Shown piece by piece: positions 3,173 to 61,611 of a stretch of 64,000 bases of DNA. The DNA comes from Candidatus Omnitrophota bacterium (GTDB taxonomy: Bacteria > Omnitrophota > Gorgyraeia > Gygaellales > Profunditerraquicolaceae), in assembly GCA_028716965.1 (NCBI GenBank), contig JAQUOV010000005.1, positions 71,009 through 135,008 of the forward strand, read 5' to 3'. The notes under the pieces are model-generated. The model did not search any database. It had not been told where the DNA came from and saw only the letters and a list, made by a program, of their open reading frames with translations. The position numbers and the translations under genes were made by a program. The stretch's first letter is position 1. The number at the start of each line of letters is the position of its first letter.

Positions 3173-4534
3173 CTATTCTCCTTTAGCATCGTTTACTAAG
3201 GTGTCTTGCACAAAATGCGTGGAAATGTCGCCTTTCTTAAATAACGGGTTATCCATTAATTTAAGATGAAAAGGTATGGTAGTTTTAATAGGGGCGATAT
3301 GAAATTCGCTTAATGCCCTGCGCATAGTTTTAATTGCCTCCTGGCGGCTATTGCCGTAAACAATCAGCTTGGCTAGGAGCGAATCATAATAAGAAGGCAC
3401 TTCATACCCGGAGTAAATATGAGTATCGATGCGCACATTTGGCCCCCCGGGCAAAATCAGTGATTCTATCTTGCCCGGAGACGGCATAAAATTATTATCC
3501 GCGTCTTCTGCGTTAATACGGCATTCTATCGCCGCGCCCTTAATCTGTACATTCTCCTGCTGGATCTTCAGTTTCTCTCCGCTTGAGACCCGGATCTGCT
3601 CTTTAATCAAGTCAATACCGGTAACCATTTCGGTAACCGGATGCTCCACCTGGATACGCGTATTCATCTCCATGAAATAGAAATTGTTGGTCTTGGCATC
3701 CAGCAAAAACTCAATAGTGCCGCAACTAAGGTAACCGATGGATTTCATCCCCTTTAAAACCATCTCTCCCAGTTTACGGCGCATCTTACTATCCACTGCC
3801 GGAGAAGGAGATTCCTCAAGCAGTTTCTGGTGCCTCCTCTGGACACTACAGTCCCTCTCTCCCAGCTGCAAGACATGGCCCTGGCGGTCAGCAATAATCT
3901 GAACTTCAATATGGCGCGGCTTTTCAATGTATTTCTCAATGTAGACGCTGGAATTGCCGAAATTCGCTTCTGCCTCGCTCTGCGCGGTCAAAAGGCTGGA
4001 GACCAAAGTTAAATCATTATGGCAAATACGCATCCCCTTGCCTCCGCCTCCGGCAGCTGCCTTGATTATCACAGGATAGCCGATCTCCTTGGCAGTCTTA
4101 AGCGCTTCTTCTTTATTCTTAATGATCGCGCGGCTTCCCGGCACAATAGGCAGGCCTGCCTTCTGCATAGTCGTACGCGCAGCCATCTTATCTCCCATAA
4201 GGCGGATATTCTCCGGGGTCGGGCCGATAAAAGTAATCTTGCAGGATTCGCATATCTCGGCGAAATGCGCATTTTCAGCCAAAAACCCATAACCCGGATG
4301 GATAGCCTCTACATCGGTAATTTCTGCCGCGCTGATAATAGCGGGAATATTCAAATAGCTGCTGCTGGAAGATGCCTGCCCGATACAGATTGCCTCATCG
4401 GCAAAGCGTACGTGCAGGCTGTTACGGTCGGCCTGAGAGTATACGGCAACGGTACGGATACCCATCTCATGACAGGCGCGGATTATTCTTAAGGCGATTT
4501 CGCCCCGGTTGGCAATGAGGATTTTAGAGAACAT
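3173..4534 (-). CDS. accC: acetyl-CoA carboxylase biotin carboxylase subunit
   Basis: [21 protein letters not shown]...ATP-grasp; [14 protein letters not shown] motif; followed by accB. Confidence 0.92.
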
Positions 4535-7225: not shown

Positions 7226-7233
7226 GGCTTCCC

Positions 7234-7264
7234 CCTATATTCTATATACTACATACTATCTACT
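7234..7264. repeat. TA-rich 'TAGTA/TACTA' spacer element (upstream of aroQ)
   Basis: Plus: ctatattctatatactacatactatctactg. The sense (minus) strand reads CAGTAGATAGTATGTAGTATATAGAATATAGGGGG, 12 nt before the start codon. Confidence 0.7.
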
Positions 7265-7267
7265 GCT

Positions 7268-7436: not shown

Positions 7437-7515
7437 ACACCCGCGCAATTTGCGCCAGCCTTGCGCACACCAACGCAATTCCTTATTAGCGTTGGGTGCC
7501 ATTAGCGCGGGGTGT
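7437..7515. repeat. REP-like 79-bp palindromic element, copy 2
   Basis: ACACCCGCGCAATTTGCGCCAGCCTTGCGCACACCAACGCAATTCCTTATTAGCGTTGGGTGCCATTAGCGCGGGGTGT; nested inverted repeats. Confidence 0.85.
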
Positions 7516-7941
7516 GTCCTCCCCTGTTCCAGGAGCAAGATAAGCCACCCTTAATTCATAAAGCAGGTTTTCCAAAAGTTTTGTTTCTTCGGGAGTCAGA
7601 TTCCCTTTAGTTTTACCCTGCAACATCCCTAATGTATCAATGATAAATTTTGCCTGGGCAGGGTCTTTTTGAGTTTTTTTGGTCTCCGGATTAACCATAT
7701 GCCCCAAAGCAATGGAAGCCTGTAAAGCAAGAGTAGTAACAAAGAATTTAAAATCCGGGTCAGGGGGGATAAAATTACCCTCCCCTTTATTAGCCAGCTT
7801 TTCCTTCTCTATGTTCTCTTTCCAGACCTCATCAACTTTCTTCTGGCTTCGGCTATCGGAAGCCAAACCATTGCCTTGCGGCTTATGGCTTCGGCTATCG
7901 CAGGCCGAACCCTCGCCTTCCGGTTTCTTTATCTCATCCAT
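7486..7941 (-). CDS. DUF1844-like hypothetical protein; C-terminal end encoded by a REP element, N-terminus contains in-frame 35-bp tandem repeat
   Basis: FIPPDPDFKFFVTTLALQASIALG core; last ~15 codons lie inside REP copy 7437-7515. Confidence 0.5.
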   Translation of the reverse strand: MDEIKKPEGEGSACDSRSHKPQGNGLASDSRSQKKVDEVWKENIEKEKLANKGEGNFIPPDPDFKFFVTTLALQASIALGHMVNPETKKTQKDPAQAKFIIDTLGMLQGKTKGNLTPEETKLLENLLYELRVAYLAPGTGEDTPRANGTQR

Positions 7942-7944
7942 ATT

Positions 7945-8772
7945 TTAACAGATTGTGACTCCGGCGTAGCCAACAACACTGCTGGTATCTCCGCTGACGT
8001 CGCCGCTGGTTTGATATTTAACTAACCTGCCCTTTTTTGCCCCAAGCAGCCTGGCGGCCCTTAATAAAACCGCTACCGCTGCAAAACCGCACATGGAAAT
8101 ATCTGCCCGCTTAACTACCGCCCCAAGTTTATCTTCATCCAAAGCGGTTATTGCCTCTATCGCCATGGCATCTTTTCTTTCCGCGCTCTTCTGTGATTCA
8201 TAATGTGTCATATCCGAGCTGGCAACAAAGATGATCGAGTTTATAAGATTATTCCTGATAATTACTCCTGCCAGCTCATCCGCAACTATTTTAAGCTTAT
8301 CTAATTCATCATTCTTAATAACAATTGGAACGATCTTAAAATCTTTCTTAAAATACTGCAGCATAGGCAGCTCTACTTCCAATGAATGTTCATCGGTATG
8401 GGCAAGAGTATCGGCCTCCAGATACCTTGAACTGCTCAGGAATAAATTTGCCAGCCGGGAATCAATCTCTACATTGCCCAAGGGAGTCTGCCAATACCCC
8501 CGGACCATCAGGCTAAAGTCCGGTCCGCTTCCATAATGATTAGGCCCTAAAAGGATAACTGTATCTTTGATACTTATCCCCGAAAGCGTCTGGACAGCCA
8601 CACTTCCGGAATAAGCATACCCGGCGTGAGGCAACATGCAACCTATCGCATTCTGCTTTTGCGCAATCCTGCCGCTGCCAAAAGAAGAGATCATCTCAAG
8701 AATAACATCCGGTTGCGATGGATAAAACTGCCCGGCGGCTGAAGGCTTGCGGATATTAAGCTGGTTCATCAT
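7945..8772 (-). CDS. MEMO1 family / AmmeMemoRadiSam system protein B
   Basis: AGQFYP signature at N-terminus, ~275 aa. Confidence 0.8.
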   Translation of the reverse strand: MMNQLNIRKPSAAGQFYPSQPDVILEMISSFGSGRIAQKQNAIGCMLPHAGYAYSGSVAVQTLSGISIKDTVILLGPNHYGSGPDFSLMVRGYWQTPLGNVEIDSRLANLFLSSSRYLEADTLAHTDEHSLEVELPMLQYFKKDFKIVPIVIKNDELDKLKIVADELAGVIIRNNLINSIIFVASSDMTHYESQKSAERKDAMAIEAITALDEDKLGAVVKRADISMCGFAAVAVLLRAARLLGAKKGRLVKYQTSGDVSGDTSSVVGYAGVTIC

Positions 8773-10726: not shown

Positions 10727-12583
10727 TTAGAATTCAGCTTTCAGGCCGCCGGTAAAAGAGAAACCGGGCATGGGATAACCCCGTATAACCTGGTACTTAC
10801 GGTTCAAAAGGTTGTCTATGTAAGCAAAACAGCTAACTCCGTGCCTGAATTTCTTTGAGACGCTAATACCCAAAGTAAAGAAATTCTTTACCTTATCGGT
10901 ATTCACGGCGTTACCAAACCTCTGGCCCGTAAATTGGCCTTTCAACTCAACCGTCAAACCGTCATAGCCATGATATCTCAAGCAGGCATCAACTTTATTC
11001 ATCGGTTGATACACAAGGTATTTGTGAGTATCTGCGTCCCTTGCGATTAAGTATGTATAATTAATATCTAAATTAAGGTTATCCGAAATAAACATTTTAT
11101 TTTCAAGCTCTATGCCGTCTATTGCCGCGGAGCTGACATTCTCCGGCCGCCATACCGCGCTTGCATCAGGTGACCATTGTATAAGCTGTTTGAAATCACT
11201 GTGGAAATAAGTAAATCCTGAAACAAGGTATCTATTTATCCTTACCTCAGCTCCCAATTCTTCAGTAACCCCTTTTTCCGGCCTGAGATTAGGATTACCT
11301 TCTTCCCCCCCTGCTAACGCACCCTTATAATAGTAATAATTGGCAGGCCAATATAAGTCGTTAAAAGTAGGGGCACGGAAAGAACGGCTGATCAAACCAT
11401 GGAATTTTATGTTCTCATTGAATTTATAGAGTGCGCTTAAACCCGGATTAAACTGTGTGCCGAAATTGGAGTAATCATCAACCCGGCCGCTAAGATTGAT
11501 ATTGAGTTTCTTGTCAAATAAATCCAAGCGGTTTTCTATGTATCCTGCGCGCACAATATATTCATGTTTTGCGCTGGAGGTAGAGTCATTCATATTTCTC
11601 ACATAATTTAATCCGCATACTATGCCATAATCATCCAATAACTGTTTATCAAGCTGAAGATCAAACCCTCTGACTCTAGTCGTATGTATGTCCTTGGTAT
11701 AAGTAGTAGAATTCTCAATGAATTCCAGCCGGTCGTAATTCTGATAAGCCCTGGCTGATAACCCAGTCTGTTCATCCGGCTTAAAGCTCCATTTAAAATC
11801 AAAGAAACGCTTCAGCGTATTCTGTTTATCGTCTTCATCCGGCCAGCTTGTGGAGCCAGGAGCACCCACCTTACTTGCATAAAAACCGGAGTTAAACCAT
11901 AAATTATTTTCGCTATTAAGATCATACTCCAGTTTAAGATTGCAGTCCTTAGAGTTCAATTGGGAATTTTGACGGAAGCCCTCGGAACTTTCGTATCCGC
12001 CGCTGATAAGATAGCTGAATTTTGAGACCCTTGCTCCATATAGCGCCCGCTCGATATACGTCCTGGCAGTACCAAAGCTTGAATAAATTTCTGCCTTCTG
12101 CCCTTCCTTTGGCGGTTTCTTGGTGATGATATTGACCACTCCTCCCATTGCCGAACTACCATAGAGACTGGAGCCCGGTCCATGCATAACTTCCACCCTG
12201 GATACATTATCTAATGGAATATCGGATAAGTTAACCGAGCCGTCCCTGGGGTTGTTTATCGGCCTGCCATCCATTAAAACCAATACCTGGGAGGCGGTAG
12301 AACCGCGCATTCTTATATCTTTGTTAGCTCCCGGCCCGCCGTAATTACTTATATTGACGGAAGTAAGGTCTGTGAGGGCATCGGATAAATCCTGCGCCCC
12401 GCTTTCCTCCATTTCTTTGGCGGTAACCACATCAACCACGCGGCTGACATCTCCGGATGATTCTTCTATCCTTGAGGGGGTTACTACGATCTTATTTAAT
12501 TCTACATCTTGCGGAAAAGCGATATTTGGCAGGCAAAACAATAACAACCCCAGAAAAATCAGTTTCTTGATAATATTTTTCAT
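10727..12583 (-). CDS. btuB: TonB-dependent outer-membrane receptor, probable vitamin B12 transporter
   Basis: Signal peptide, TonB box (KIVVTPSR), plug plus 22-strand barrel, terminal aromatic residue. It is preceded by a cobalamin riboswitch and neighbours the cob/btu genes. Confidence 0.85.
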   Translation of the reverse strand: MKNIIKKLIFLGLLLFCLPNIAFPQDVELNKIVVTPSRIEESSGDVSRVVDVVTAKEMEESGAQDLSDALTDLTSVNISNYGGPGANKDIRMRGSTASQVLVLMDGRPINNPRDGSVNLSDIPLDNVSRVEVMHGPGSSLYGSSAMGGVVNIITKKPPKEGQKAEIYSSFGTARTYIERALYGARVSKFSYLISGGYESSEGFRQNSQLNSKDCNLKLEYDLNSENNLWFNSGFYASKVGAPGSTSWPDEDDKQNTLKRFFDFKWSFKPDEQTGLSARAYQNYDRLEFIENSTTYTKDIHTTRVRGFDLQLDKQLLDDYGIVCGLNYVRNMNDSTSSAKHEYIVRAGYIENRLDLFDKKLNINLSGRVDDYSNFGTQFNPGLSALYKFNENIKFHGLISRSFRAPTFNDLYWPANYYYYKGALAGGEEGNPNLRPEKGVTEELGAEVRINRYLVSGFTYFHSDFKQLIQWSPDASAVWRPENVSSAAIDGIELENKMFISDNLNLDINYTYLIARDADTHKYLVYQPMNKVDACLRYHGYDGLTVELKGQFTGQRFGNAVNTDKVKNFFTLGISVSKKFRHGVSCFAYIDNLLNRKYQVIRGYPMPGFSFTGGLKAEF

Positions 12584-12604
12584 TGATTCCCTTTCTCTTC
12601 TTGC

Positions 12605-12800
12605 GAGAGTACTTACCTGTCTGCCGTAGGCAGACCTGCGATAGGCGATCGACCGGGCTCATAAATCAGCATGTAGAATGTAGTAGGTAGAATATAAAGC
12701 GAACCTGCATTCTTTATTCTACCTTCTACCTACTGACTTACATTACCGTTGCGAGACAGCGCCTGGGATCATACCAGGACTTCCTTCGCCTATCCGGTTT
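12605..12800 (-). promoter_or_regulatory. cobalamin (AdoCbl) riboswitch in btuB leader
   Basis: Minus-strand read GGAAGUCCUGGUAUGAUCCCAGGCGCUGUCUCGCAACGGUAAUG matches the conserved cobalamin-riboswitch core (compare E. coli btuB GGGAAUCCAGUGCGAAUCUGGAGCUGACGCGCAGCGGUAAGG). A 3' B12-box-like GAGCCCGG...GCAGGUCUGCC follows, then a hairpin (GUCUGCC-UAC-GGCAGAC) next to the RBS/ATG. Confidence 0.75.
12671..12740. repeat. two inverted copies of the TA-rich element inside the btuB riboswitch
   Basis: ATGTAGAATGTAGTAGGTAGAATATAAAG...CTTTATTCTACCTTCTACCTACTGACTTAC; the arms are mutually complementary. Confidence 0.7.
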
Positions 12801-12813
12801 GTATCTTTAGAAG

Positions 12814-13479
12814 TTAAACGTATTTTTTAATATCCAAAAACCAGTGTTTCCCAAAACTCTCTTCTAATACAGGTTGCGTCTCCAGTACCCTGATCGGCTC
12901 CCTGAATAAAGGCCCATCAACCACTAAAGTATGGAACTCTCCTTTCTCCCCGCAGGGGTCAATTTCAGGTTTTAGTTCTTCTATAAACTTCCTGTCCATA
13001 ATCCGGCCCAGCCACTCCTTGCCTAATAGATCGGCTTTGACCGCTACCACCACAGCCTTAAAACCGGAATCAATGATCTCTAAAGCCAATTCCTTGGTAT
13101 CCTTACCCCATAAAGGCATGATCGGCTCTACCTCCGCTTCCCGGCAGAGCGCATCAATCCAATCCTTATGTTCCTGCAGATATATATCTCCAAAAACTAT
13201 TCCCCGGATACCTGCCTTCTTTTGCCAAATGCGAATCAATCTTTTAAATTCCTCGCGATAGGCCTTCCTGGCATCAGGCATTGCCTTTTGCGCCATCGGG
13301 ATTCCAACAAGCTCTGCTTGCCTGAAAATAATCGACGCAAGGAGGCCATGAGAGAGCGACTTTTCCCCTTTAGGATCCGTAAAATTAAATAAGACCGAAA
13401 GATCATGGCCCATAGAAATGGCTTTATAACAGGCAAAACAACTATCTTTACCAGCGCTCCAGAGGCCGGCTACCTTCAT
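12814..13479 (-). CDS. PP-loop ATP pyrophosphatase of the MJ0570/Dph6 (diphthine-ammonia ligase-like) family
   Basis: N-terminal SAGKDS PP-loop, 221 aa; start overlaps cobQ stop by 4 nt (translational coupling); last gene of cob operon. Confidence 0.6.
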   Translation of the reverse strand: MKVAGLWSAGKDSCFACYKAISMGHDLSVLFNFTDPKGEKSLSHGLLASIIFRQAELVGIPMAQKAMPDARKAYREEFKRLIRIWQKKAGIRGIVFGDIYLQEHKDWIDALCREAEVEPIMPLWGKDTKELALEIIDSGFKAVVVAVKADLLGKEWLGRIMDRKFIEELKPEIDPCGEKGEFHTLVVDGPLFREPIRVLETQPVLEESFGKHWFLDIKKYV

Positions 13480-20699: not shown

Positions 20700-20905
20700 C
20701 TACTTTTCTTTACATAGGCAGGTCTTCTGGCTTGAGTTTCAACCTATTTGCTGCGCCTTCCCATGTTGGCATTTGTCAACACAGTGGCTTTGGCTATTTT
20801 GTAGCCAAACCACAGCCTTGCGGCTAGTGGCTTTCTTTTGCAGCTTTCGTCAACTCTTACAGCGGCGGGACCGCATCCGATTAACGCGCAGGCGTTACAC
20901 CCGCG
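20700..20905 (-). promoter_or_regulatory. cobalamin riboswitch in btuF-btuCD-cobC operon leader
   Basis: Minus-strand read contains GGUUAAUCGGAUGCGGUCCCGCCGCUGUAAG. It also contains GCCACUG (twice), UGGGAAGGC, and a near-perfect B12 box AAGCCAGAAGACCUGCC (plus 20716-20735). The 5' end abuts a REP element. Confidence 0.8.
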
Positions 20906-20975
20906 CAATTTGCGCCAGCCTTGCGCACACCAACGCAATTCCTTATTAGCGTTGGGTGCCATTAGCGCGGGGTGT
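20897..20975. repeat. REP-like 79-bp palindromic element, copy 3 (79/79 identical to copy 2)
   Basis: identical string to 7437-7515; immediately 5' of riboswitch 2 on the minus strand. Confidence 0.85.
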
Positions 20976-43407: not shown

Positions 43408-43440
43408 CTTTTCCTTTATTCTATTGAGCTCTTGCGTTTT

Positions 43441-43475
43441 ACCTATATTCTACATTCTATCTGCTACATACTGCC
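43441..43475. repeat. TA-rich spacer element (rplX-rplE junction)
   Basis: acctatattctacattctatctgctacatactgcc. Confidence 0.7.
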
Positions 43476-46170: not shown

Positions 46171-46185
46171 CTTTGCCTTGATTCT

Positions 46186-46213
46186 CCCTACATTCTACCT
46201 ACTATATACTGAC
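46186..46213. repeat. TA-rich spacer element (rpsS-rplV junction)
   Basis: ccctacattctacctactatatactgac. Confidence 0.7.
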
Positions 46214-47341: not shown

Positions 47342-47366
47342 ATTTTTATTCTTCTTTTTGATTTTC

Positions 47367-47400
47367 CCTATATTCTACATACTATATACTACATACTGTC
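47367..47400. repeat. TA-rich spacer element (rplW-rplB junction)
   Basis: ccctatattctacatactatatactacatactgtc. Confidence 0.7.
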
Positions 47401-52674: not shown

Positions 52675-52689
52675 CTCTTTTTTGCTTTT

Positions 52690-52724
52690 CCCTGCATACT
52701 ATATACTACCTACTACATACTGAC
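52690..52724. repeat. TA-rich spacer element (rpsG-fusA junction)
   Basis: ccctgcatactatatactacctactacatactgac. Confidence 0.7.
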
Positions 52725-61053: not shown

Positions 61054-61168
61054 AATCCCTTATGGCTTTGGCTATCAGAAGCCAAACCATAACCCTGTAA
61101 TTAATGGCTAAATTCAGCCTATCTTTAGTTACTTTAGTTTAATTAAATTTACTTATACTTACTTAAAC

Positions 61169-61552: not shown

Positions 61553-61578
61553 TTCTTCCTCCTTTGTCCACCCGGACA

Positions 61579-61611
61579 ACACCCGCGCAATTTGCGCTAA
61601 GCGCGGGGTGT
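61579..61611. repeat. REP-like element, minimal 33-bp hairpin form (copy 4)
   Basis: ACACCCGCGCAATTTGCGCTAAGCGCGGGGTGT between rplJ and rplL. Confidence 0.75.

Follow-up and report, generated by a model that had tools for sequence, protein, structure and literature searches.

A sub-threshold Cbl-IIb cobalamin riboswitch in an Omnitrophota receptor leader, with an inverted repeat doublet in place of its distal P6 hairpin

The DNA analysed here is a 64,000-nt stretch from a Candidatus Omnitrophota bacterium (contig JAQUOV010000005.1), called the window below, and all coordinates refer to it unless a locus of a relative is named. Our subject is a 230-nt minus-strand leader (12584-12813). It follows a Dph6-like ATP-pyrophosphatase gene, whose stop codon is at 12814, and runs up to the ATG (12581-12583) of a BtuB-like TonB-dependent receptor gene. 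The receptor open reading frame downstream of the leader is intact, and its top NCBIfam match is TIGR01779 TonB-B12 (194 bits, under the equivalog cutoff of 599.7). Leader and receptor belong to a B12 salvage and uptake cluster with the order BtuF-like protein, ABC transporter, CobS, CobQ, leader, receptor, TonB-like protein and a weak CbiR-like match. The core GGAAGUCCUGGUAUGAUCCCAGGCGCUGUCUCGCAACGGUAAUG was found on the minus strand at 12784-12741. The core GGAAGUCCUGGUAUGAUCCCAGGCGCUGUCUCGCAACGGUAA, quoted in a sequence-only reading of this DNA, is present in the leader as well, with two mutually complementary A/U-rich arms directly 3' of it. That reading had proposed a cobalamin riboswitch for this receptor gene, an identification now supported by a match to Rfam family RF01482, by orthologues that pass its threshold and by covariation.

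The whole window was scanned with Rfam at the gathering thresholds (50 bits for RF01482; 31.5 bits for RF00174) and the leader locus was rescanned permissively in a 401-nt search. The gathering-threshold scan detected RF00174 only at 20700-20949, with no RF00174 match at the leader locus, and no rRNA anywhere in the 64 kb. In the permissive scan the best clan member at the locus was RF01482 (AdoCbl), which matches 12640-12794 with 28.4 bits (E = 0.0024); the alignment spans model positions 18-103 with every helix included, and 79 nt are scored as an insertion in the P6 hairpin. For comparison we assembled 30 leaders: the window, four loci from Candidatus Omnitrophota metagenome-assembled genomes whose receptors are 76-82% identical to the window receptor, and 25 metagenome loci retrieved with the conserved core as a DNA pattern (loci of relatives carry L numbers below). 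All 30 leaders share the core, keep the box AG[CU]CCGG[ACU]C and have the same receptor gene downstream. The RF01482 scores of close orthologues range from 29.8 to 42.0 bits, those of insert-free leaders from 37 to 42 bits, and the window is the lowest of five close orthologues. The orthologues L018 (63.4 bits) and L034 (50.3 bits) pass the gathering threshold with full-length RF01482 matches.

Structural alignment and covariation analysis were performed on the 27 distinct leaders. The proposed helices are paired in 95.1% of cells, vs 35-49% when the partners are slid, and compensatory changes occur at 15 of 32 pairs; none of 500 shuffles reached any of the observed measures. Every column invariant in this alignment is unchanged in the window, junction strands and box included. 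Because two orthologues pass the gathering threshold and the helices covary, we assign the leader by homology to the RF01482 'AdoCbl' family, as a sub-threshold Cbl-IIb (short-P6) cobalamin riboswitch. Adenosylcobalamin binding by the window leader and repression of the gene downstream are predicted.

The class assignment agrees with the published description of Cbl-IIb, which has no P2 arm and a short J1/3 (PMC7367189). The window shares with RF01482/Cbl-IIb the four-way junction P3-P4-P5-P6, the junction strands GGAAG... and GC(A/C)ACNGUAA, the B12 box AGYCNGG...GCC, the absence of a P2 arm, the very short J1/3, a 3' hairpin beside the ribosome binding site (RBS) and a B12-transporter gene downstream. 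A plain P6 hairpin is the further mark of the class. The ancestral short form of this leader fits it, and the window is a derived departure, with a distal P6 hairpin made of an 82-nt repeat doublet vs about 12-25 nt. The window also differs from the class in its low score, in an extra hairpin between the 3' strands of P3 and P1, in its operon-internal position and in that no L5-L13 complementarity was detected. The sequence-only reading had likened the leader to the Escherichia coli btuB riboswitch and named RF00174, the family of that type, as its test, which this locus does not pass at gathering. A Cbl-I (RF00174) type was rejected: the P2 arm is absent, there is no GCCACUG...GGGAAGGC P6 extension and no match at gathering, whereas both the extension and the P2 arm are present in the window's other riboswitch. 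The leader has the ligand class and the type of regulated gene, a TonB-dependent B12 receptor, in common with E. coli btuB, and differs from it in lacking the P2 arm and the long P6 extension; we take the central core and B12 box to be collinear with the E. coli leader. The riboswitch itself is ordinary; what is unusual is the repeat hairpin in its P6 and the repeat from which it is built.

The features of the leader and the copies of the repeat are listed in Table 1. The P1 pairing ACC/GGU switches to UCC/GGA among relatives (alignment columns 9-11 and 210-212), and a single nucleotide, J1/3, separates P1 from P3 on the 5' side. P3 is a helix of 9-10 bp with compensatory changes at 8 of 10 pairs across relatives. 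P4 is invariant in its pairing (100% of cells paired in the 27 leaders), and variation of P5 in the family is confined to the middle loop base. P6 consists of the CGG/CCG pairing, a conserved UAA/GAGC internal loop and a distal stem that is variable in length and covaries heavily. The sequence-only reading had taken GCAGGUCUGCC for a degenerate B12 box in a hairpin. The hairpin exists, with the stem GUCUGCC/GGCAGAC, and the box assignment does not hold, since GCAGGUCUGCC is an arm of an optional hairpin outside the aptamer and the conserved box is GAGCCCGGUCGAUCGCC. The optional hairpin measures 17-20 nt; the window, L003, L015 and L028 have it in one sequence form, L022 and L039 as the variant GCCUGCC-UGUC-GGCAGGC. 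It is a perfect hairpin with a CAGG(T) direct repeat on either side and arms resembling inverted local sequence, the signature that a template-switch mutation is expected to leave (compare PMC8794818).

Table 1. Positions of the leader features, the regulated gene, the second riboswitch and the repeat copies in the window
Feature	Position	Strand	Evidence or remark
Cobalamin aptamer core, P1 5' strand to P3 3' strand, RF01482-like	12640..12798	(-)	RF01482 match and covariation
P1 5' strand ACC, pairs with GGU 12615-12617	12796..12798	(-)	AU<->UA compensatory change in 7-8 sequences
P3 5' strand GAUAGGCGA, pairs with UCGCCUAUC 12640-12648	12786..12794	(-)	9-nt perfect inverted repeat
P4 hairpin GUCCUGG-UAUGAUC-CCAGGC, 7-nt L4 loop 12767-12773	12761..12780	(-)	RF01482 model alignment
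P5 mini-hairpin UGU-CUC-GCA, C-rich L5	12750..12758	(-)	Model alignment
P6 proximal 5' strand CGG and UAA junction; CGG pairs with CCG 12654-12656	12743..12748	(-)	Invariant in 27/27 leaders
Insert, inverted doublet of the heptamer element, in place of the short distal P6 hairpin	12661..12742	(-)	Absent from 27/30 orthologous leaders
5' arm of insert, forward element copy AAGUCAGUAGG UAGAAGG UAGAAUA AAGAAUG CAGG	12704..12739	(-)	Ends in common with the S7-fusA copy
3' arm of insert, reverse-complement element copy; + strand CAGCATG TAGAATG TAGTAGG TAGAATA	12661..12698	(-)	Inverted-repeat and array searches
B12-box equivalent / J6-3, GAGCCCGGUCGAUCGCC	12644..12660	(-)	Aligns to RF01482 box AAGUCAGGUCUUUugcC
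Optional hairpin GUCUGCC-UAC-GGCAGAC, between P3 and P1 3' strands	12619..12635	(-)	In 6/27 distinct leaders
P13-like hairpin CUCU-CGCAAGA-AGAG, directly 5' of the Shine-Dalgarno sequence	12595..12609	(-)	CG<->UA compensatory change in 8 sequences
Shine-Dalgarno-like AAAGGGA, 4 nt before ATG	12588..12594	(-)	Sequence reading; purine-rich GGA/GGG conserved
TonB-dependent receptor gene, BtuB-like, 618 aa; regulated gene	10727..12583	(-)	Pfam Plug and TonB_dep_Rec_b-barrel
Second cobalamin riboswitch, RF00174; leads operon of the same B12 cluster	20700..20949	(-)	50.1 bits, above gathering 31.5
Singlet element before aroQ	7231..7265	(-)	Ends 5 nt before TTG start (7225); 7 nt from terminal TAGGG
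Singlet element, L24-L5 spacer	43439..43473	(-)	Array search
Singlet element, S19-L22 spacer	46184..46211	(-)	Array search
Singlet element, L23-L2 spacer	47364..47398	(-)	Array search
Singlet element, S7-fusA spacer	52688..52722	(-)	Array search

The riboswitch starts 20 nt past the preceding stop codon, and a scan of 12584..12813 found no terminator-like and no sigma-70-like promoter site in the leader. It therefore lies inside the operon and most likely acts on translation, and cobalamin binding would reduce translation initiation of the receptor, an expectation drawn from other cobalamin riboswitches. The P13-like hairpin (pairs in alignment columns 218-221 and 229-232) abuts the Shine-Dalgarno sequence (SD) and covaries. 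The sequence-only reading had suggested translational control; with a leader devoid of terminator-like sites and a covarying hairpin next to the SD, we regard such control as probable. An exact 8-nt direct repeat, UCUCGCAA, was also observed at 12601-12608 and 12749-12756: the L5/J5-6 segment is identical to the 5' strand and loop of the P13-like hairpin, and relatives match at 7 of 8 positions. This repeat could reflect competition for a common partner, or chance.

The distal part of P6 departs from the family pattern. The distance between GGUAA and the box is 14-31 nt in 27 of the 30 leaders, 82-83 nt in the window, 84-85 nt in L004 and ~90 nt in L036; the comparison with relatives that had been proposed for this leader thus yields 30 leaders with a shared core and box, 27 of them insert-free. 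Complementary arms (12662-12693 and 12709-12740) begin directly after GGUAA in the window, with a further 11-nt inverted pair at 100%. The 5' arm and the element copy in the S7-fusA spacer have the same 5' end, AAGUCAGUA, and the same 3' end, AUGCAGG. Folded alone, the window insert reaches -29.6 kcal/mol (z = -5.0; 0 of 200 shuffles equally stable), in line with the earlier description of two mutually complementary TACTA/TAGTA copies after the junction. The insert hairpins of the window, L004 and L036 have folding energies of -29.6, -38.2 and -30.2 kcal/mol (z of -5 to -6.2), vs -5.4 kcal/mol for the ancestral hairpin, whose sequence in L003 is UGUUGGUAAAUAUCUGUGCGCCAAC. Folding with and without the insert left the picture unchanged: with the short hairpin in place of the insert the same core fold was predicted, and all helices remain paired in the window leader itself. 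The insertion, which replaces a region of variable length across the family, does not disrupt the conserved pairings, and the invariant columns are kept.

The insert is a derived state. In the receptor tree the window, L001, L004, L027 and L024 form one clade with 82-86% identity, and the clade-mates L027 and L024 keep a short P6 hairpin homologous to that of the outgroups L003 and L015; the long form is therefore a later departure from an ancestral short one. L036 has a receptor only 57% identical and an insert composed of other heptamers (UAGUGAA UAGCGGC UAGCGGA GAGUGCA UAGG...), with the 7-nt NAG period, the inverted-doublet form and the site all the same as in the window. Because L036 is distant and its heptamers differ while period, form and site agree, sequence comparison indicates that the insert was acquired at least twice independently, in the window/L004 clade and in L036. 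The claim of independence rests on L036, as the full-length and N-terminal receptor trees disagree on whether the window and L004 share one insertion or had two, and the N4 positions are too diverged to decide.

The doublet would fold on itself into a hairpin of about -30 kcal/mol stacked on P6. In Cbl-II riboswitches the distal stem of P6 points away from the ligand-binding core; because of this geometry, the insert is most probably a passenger that is tolerated, acting as a folding clamp at the utmost and taking no part in ligand sensing. The distal P6 loop would be the only site in the leader where such an insertion is harmless, which would account for the same site having been hit at least twice independently. 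A role of the P6 hairpin as an intrinsic terminator was ruled out (none predicted; no U-tract). The sequence-only reading had a repeat recruited as the variable P6-extension hairpin. A repeat doublet does occupy the distal P6 hairpin; the 'P6 extension' is a Cbl-I feature and the ancestral structure here is a plain short hairpin, and 'recruited' implies a function where the data show insertion and tolerance. Taken together, we consider it likely that the leader is an operon-internal Cbl-IIb riboswitch, probably translational, whose P6 hairpin was replaced by a repeat doublet that is a tolerated passenger.

Several observations weigh against this interpretation. The score of the window copy is far under the RF01482 gathering threshold, and most orthologues are likewise under it. 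A C-rich L5 is the usual kissing-loop partner in such riboswitches, and no L5-L13 partner was found here: mutual information between columns 34-41 (the L4 loop) and the expression platform gave nothing convincing, and the best complementarity between the true L5 (columns 50-58) and the RBS was 3.30 nt, vs 3.34 nt in shuffles. Registers chosen by eye worked in only about half of the leaders, and we do not claim an L5-L13 kissing loop. Since this partner was not detected, the regulatory step is one that we infer, and the SD AAAGGGA is unpaired in the predicted fold. As for the insert, the ~250 kb of relatives' DNA around the receptor gene hold heptamer arrays only as P6 inserts, and P6 inserts are doublets in 3 of 3 cases vs singlets in 12 of 12 spacer copies. 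This non-random association of P6 and doublets could mean that the insert was selected for a function and is not neutral.

The repeat is specific to this lineage and dispersed in the window. The 14-mer AGTAGGTAGAATAT has 10 matches with up to two mismatches (0.51 expected), and runs of (NAG-N4)>=4 number 7, vs 0.7 expected from dinucleotide shuffles. The unit is a heptamer, (C/T)AG-N-A-N-N, with 4-5 units per array; arrays begin with aaAGnCAGUA and mostly end in UAGGGaa. All 46 units have A at heptamer position 2 and G at position 3, 43 of the 46 have T at position 1, and position 4 is almost unconstrained (0.28 bits). All window copies outside the riboswitch are on the transcribed strand; 12 of 12 spacer copies are sense-strand, with 2-11 nt between them and the stop codon that precedes and 3-35 nt to the start codon that follows. 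In orthologous copies the NAG phase is 98% identical vs 60% for N4, a difference inflated by the selection of arrays with a.AG regular expression; the qualitative point, that the phase is kept in all orthologous copies while N4 drifts, stands in the sequences compared. The element had been described earlier as sitting in ribosomal-operon spacers. This is true of four ribosomal-protein operon spacers, and rRNA operons do not enter, as the window has no rRNA. No known RNA family matched the element at gathering in the window, L040, L041 or L044 (Rfam).

Among relatives, the element occurs at the same ribosomal-protein spacers in the window, L040 and L044, whereas L041, L042, L043, L045, L046 and L047 lack it cleanly, their genes being only 0-15 nt apart there; in the ribosomal operons compared, occupancy is all-or-none per genome. 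In a tree of 3.8 kb of genes (100% bootstrap on key splits) L040 nests among the element-free L041 and L042 at 96% DNA identity, and L044 groups with the element-free L045 and L046. The junctions differ in synonymous states according to whether the element is there: the last codon of L24 ends in ..TG with the element vs ..TA, the second codon of L22 is ATA vs ATT/ATC, and the L23 stop is TAG vs TAA. Identity between L040 and L041 falls to 0.80-0.91 over ~50-130 nt beside two of the three L040 elements and is 0.96-1.00 elsewhere. Because of these short tracts of raised divergence, the sequences suggest homologous recombination as the route by which spacer alleles with the element pass from one lineage to another. 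Other structured inserts are polymorphic among close relatives, at L041 4420-4489 (S3-L16 spacer), L040 5415-5700 (L5-S8 region), and L044 11511-11650 (L22-S3) and 12369-12474, where the inserts are small; L044 also has a tandemly duplicated ~60-nt unit, and GGTGCTCGCCCTTGCTCATTTACGCTCGCAAGGACTGCACTGGATAAAAG is another insert example. The ribosomal-protein operons of this lineage are unusually rich in miniature elements.

These distributions raise the possibility of a selfish element. The insert would then be a REPIN-like or MITE-like doublet that transposes as a hairpin, with the ribosomal singlets as decayed halves, and the hits on P6 would be due to survivorship at a permissive site or to a target preference (a GGUAA junction resembling the stop contexts GGTAA and TGTAA). 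We regard this as possible though doubtful. REPINs are two inverted REPs that form a hairpin, with singlets as remnants (PMC3337134, PMC3116915), and the P6 inserts, doublets without exception, are likewise inverted units forming a hairpin, of an element present in multiple copies (7 units per 64 kb vs 0.7). Genomes 96% identical differ in whether one and the same site is occupied, in a pattern scattered over a 100%-bootstrap tree, as would also be expected of a mobile element; left flanks are often GTAA, and the same spacers are polymorphic for several further families of small repeats. However, a REP is an imperfect GC-rich palindrome and the arms here are non-palindromic, C-poor NAG-N4 units. 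Nor is the MITE pattern of terminal inverted repeats with target-site duplication seen: the singlets have no terminal inverted repeats, and a comparison of empty and occupied sites at four spacers found no target-site duplication at any junction. The singlets share one orientation, unlike a random decay of doublets, the same four spacers are occupied in three lineages, and the flank divergence of L040 fits allele recombination better than transposition. No RAYT/IS200-like gene was found, though none was looked for and only 64 kb of the genome was at hand. As a class, REPINs and small repeats such as BOX, RUP and MITEs share with the element the character of short, non-coding, dispersed intergenic repeats that occur as inverted doublet hairpins and singlets and are polymorphic among strains (PMC3116915, PMC3337134); they differ in that the window repeat lies inside an aptamer helix and not beside a riboswitch. 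A BOX element between two T-box riboswitches of Streptococcus pneumoniae leaves regulation in place (PMC3049150), and reviews only speculate on MITEs and riboswitches (PMC10969869). In the literature searched, no dispersed repeat was reported within an aptamer helix; the BOX between T-boxes comes nearest, and nothing relevant turned up on repeats in Omnitrophota.

Alternatively, the insert may be functional. The (UAG-N4)n array would bind an oligomeric HutP- or TRAP-like RNA-binding protein, or would serve as an unstructured ribosome standby site or insulator in the ribosomal-protein spacers, with the P6 copy caged in a hairpin by the complementary arm; if that hairpin melted, or the protein bound, a second input would be added and the receptor would be coupled to the control at those spacers. 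We think this unlikely, and rate 'selfish or neutral repeat' above 'regulatory array'. Phase conservation, the near-fixed TAG triplet and the uniform sense orientation between stop and start codons speak for function, as does the fact that, in the DNA around the receptor gene, the element is enriched in P6 over the remaining intergenic sequence. HutP reads three XAG triplets with 4-nt spacers, mainly through A and G (PMC2425495), so that its XAG-N4-XAG-N4-XAG site has the same geometry as (C/U)AG-N4 repeated 4-5 times, and every copy of the element has 4-5 NAG units at a 7-nt period. The likeness to HutP and TRAP targets is one of geometry only, however: HutP sites comprise two XAG clusters joined by a 12-17-nt linker and flanking a terminator stem, whereas each RNA here has one array and no terminator, and the second P6 arm is a complement (CUA), not XAG. 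The phase statistic is partly circular through the.AG selection, the insert is dispensable in 27 of 30 riboswitches, the operons of 96%-identical element-free genomes are fully compact, and a -30 kcal/mol helix holds the P6 array closed. No candidate binding protein was identified, and no HutP or TRAP homologue is known from these genomes, for which no search could be made. Still less probable is the stronger proposal that the (C/U)AG-N4 array is a previously undescribed cis-element (target of a HutP/TRAP-like binder, or a standby site or insulator) set before fusA, rplB, rplV and rplE, whose caged P6 copy made a two-input switch that evolved twice.

It is very improbable, and the weakest of these alternatives, that the insertion, the extra hairpin in J3/1 and drift have inactivated the leader, leaving a decayed pseudo-riboswitch and a receptor expressed constitutively with the upstream genes: the window has the lowest Rfam score of its close orthologues, two separate insertions within the leader and a low-scoring, repeat-bearing second riboswitch, but the invariant columns are unchanged, all helices still pair, both insertions are at length-variable positions of the family, and the persistence of the arrangement around intact cores in L004 and L036 implies that selection has retained it.

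Two further roles for the element were rejected. As a sigma-70 promoter it was flagged in one of four ribosomal-operon copies and 19 sites were obtained in total, fewer than the 21.5 expected (by the sigma-70 consensus, from which Omnitrophota's own promoters may differ); in addition, the distance from the AGnCAG end to the -10-like unit varies with the number of heptamers. A plain three-frame stop array was also considered, as all three frames are closed by a stop codon in every element copy except the L004 5' arm. The triplet used is TAG almost throughout, though TAA or TGA would serve equally, and something other than termination is therefore indicated.

With the insert read as a tolerated passenger, the locus is a natural insertion experiment in which a foreign hairpin of 80-90 nt was tolerated at the P6 tip of a Cbl-II-type aptamer, twice, and the P6 tip would be a safe engineering site for aptamers of this type. 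A large P6 insert also puts such copies under Rfam thresholds (here 28 bits); most copies in this Omnitrophota lineage are under gathering, and annotation pipelines will miss them. The element itself is odd: its NAG phase is conserved, it has a single orientation, and in scattered lineages it occupies the same four ribosomal-protein spacers on an all-or-none basis. A functional element would amount to a new control layer over core translation genes in an uncultured phylum, and a selfish one would be spreading with unusual fidelity to its sites.

A scan of viral contigs found 11 loci (8 distinct) with TAGTAnn tandem arrays, which says nothing on function. The arrays are in IMG/VR contigs of unrelated composition: L057 (2005-2040), L058 (near 8196-8226), L048/L052/L053, L049/L055 and L056. 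The L057 array has the layout of the Omnitrophota spacers: it starts 2 nt past a stop codon, and an A-rich stretch, an RBS and an ATG come after it. Two viral-contig loci share this order of stop, array, RBS and ATG, and the genes near the arrays are of mixed kinds (capsid-region, terminase and ParB-like).

The window's RF00174 riboswitch was found to carry repeats as well. It scores 50 bits in 250 nt, vs 92-95 bits in 172-234 nt in relatives (L025 4074-4245, L031 7284-7517). A second dispersed element, GC-rich, ~80-95 nt long and with nested hairpins (ACACCCCGCGnTAATGGCACCCnACGCTAATAAGGAATTGCGTTGGTGTGCGC...GCGCGGGTGT), lies mostly just 5' of start codons and has no Rfam family match; copies are at 20897-20975, 7437-7515, 952-1030 and 61563-61597 in the window and at L040 6095-6203, L041 7219-7311 and L042 6840-6945, and in three relatives it occupies the S8-L6 spacer. 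The first two window copies are 100% identical over 79 nt, and the one at 20897-20975 is the 5' arm of the RF00174 riboswitch. The P6 extension of the same riboswitch has a 61-nt insertion of a third repeat family, GGCTTCGGCTATCGGAAGCCAAACC... (sites 20782-20832, 7840-7932 and 61059-61109). Both B12 riboswitches of the genome thus carry repeats in peripheral arms. Separately, a group I intron (RF00028, 92.5 bits) was detected on an Omnitrophota-related metagenome contig at L030 2878-3134 (minus strand), beside tRNA genes at 2636-2706 and 3544-3616.

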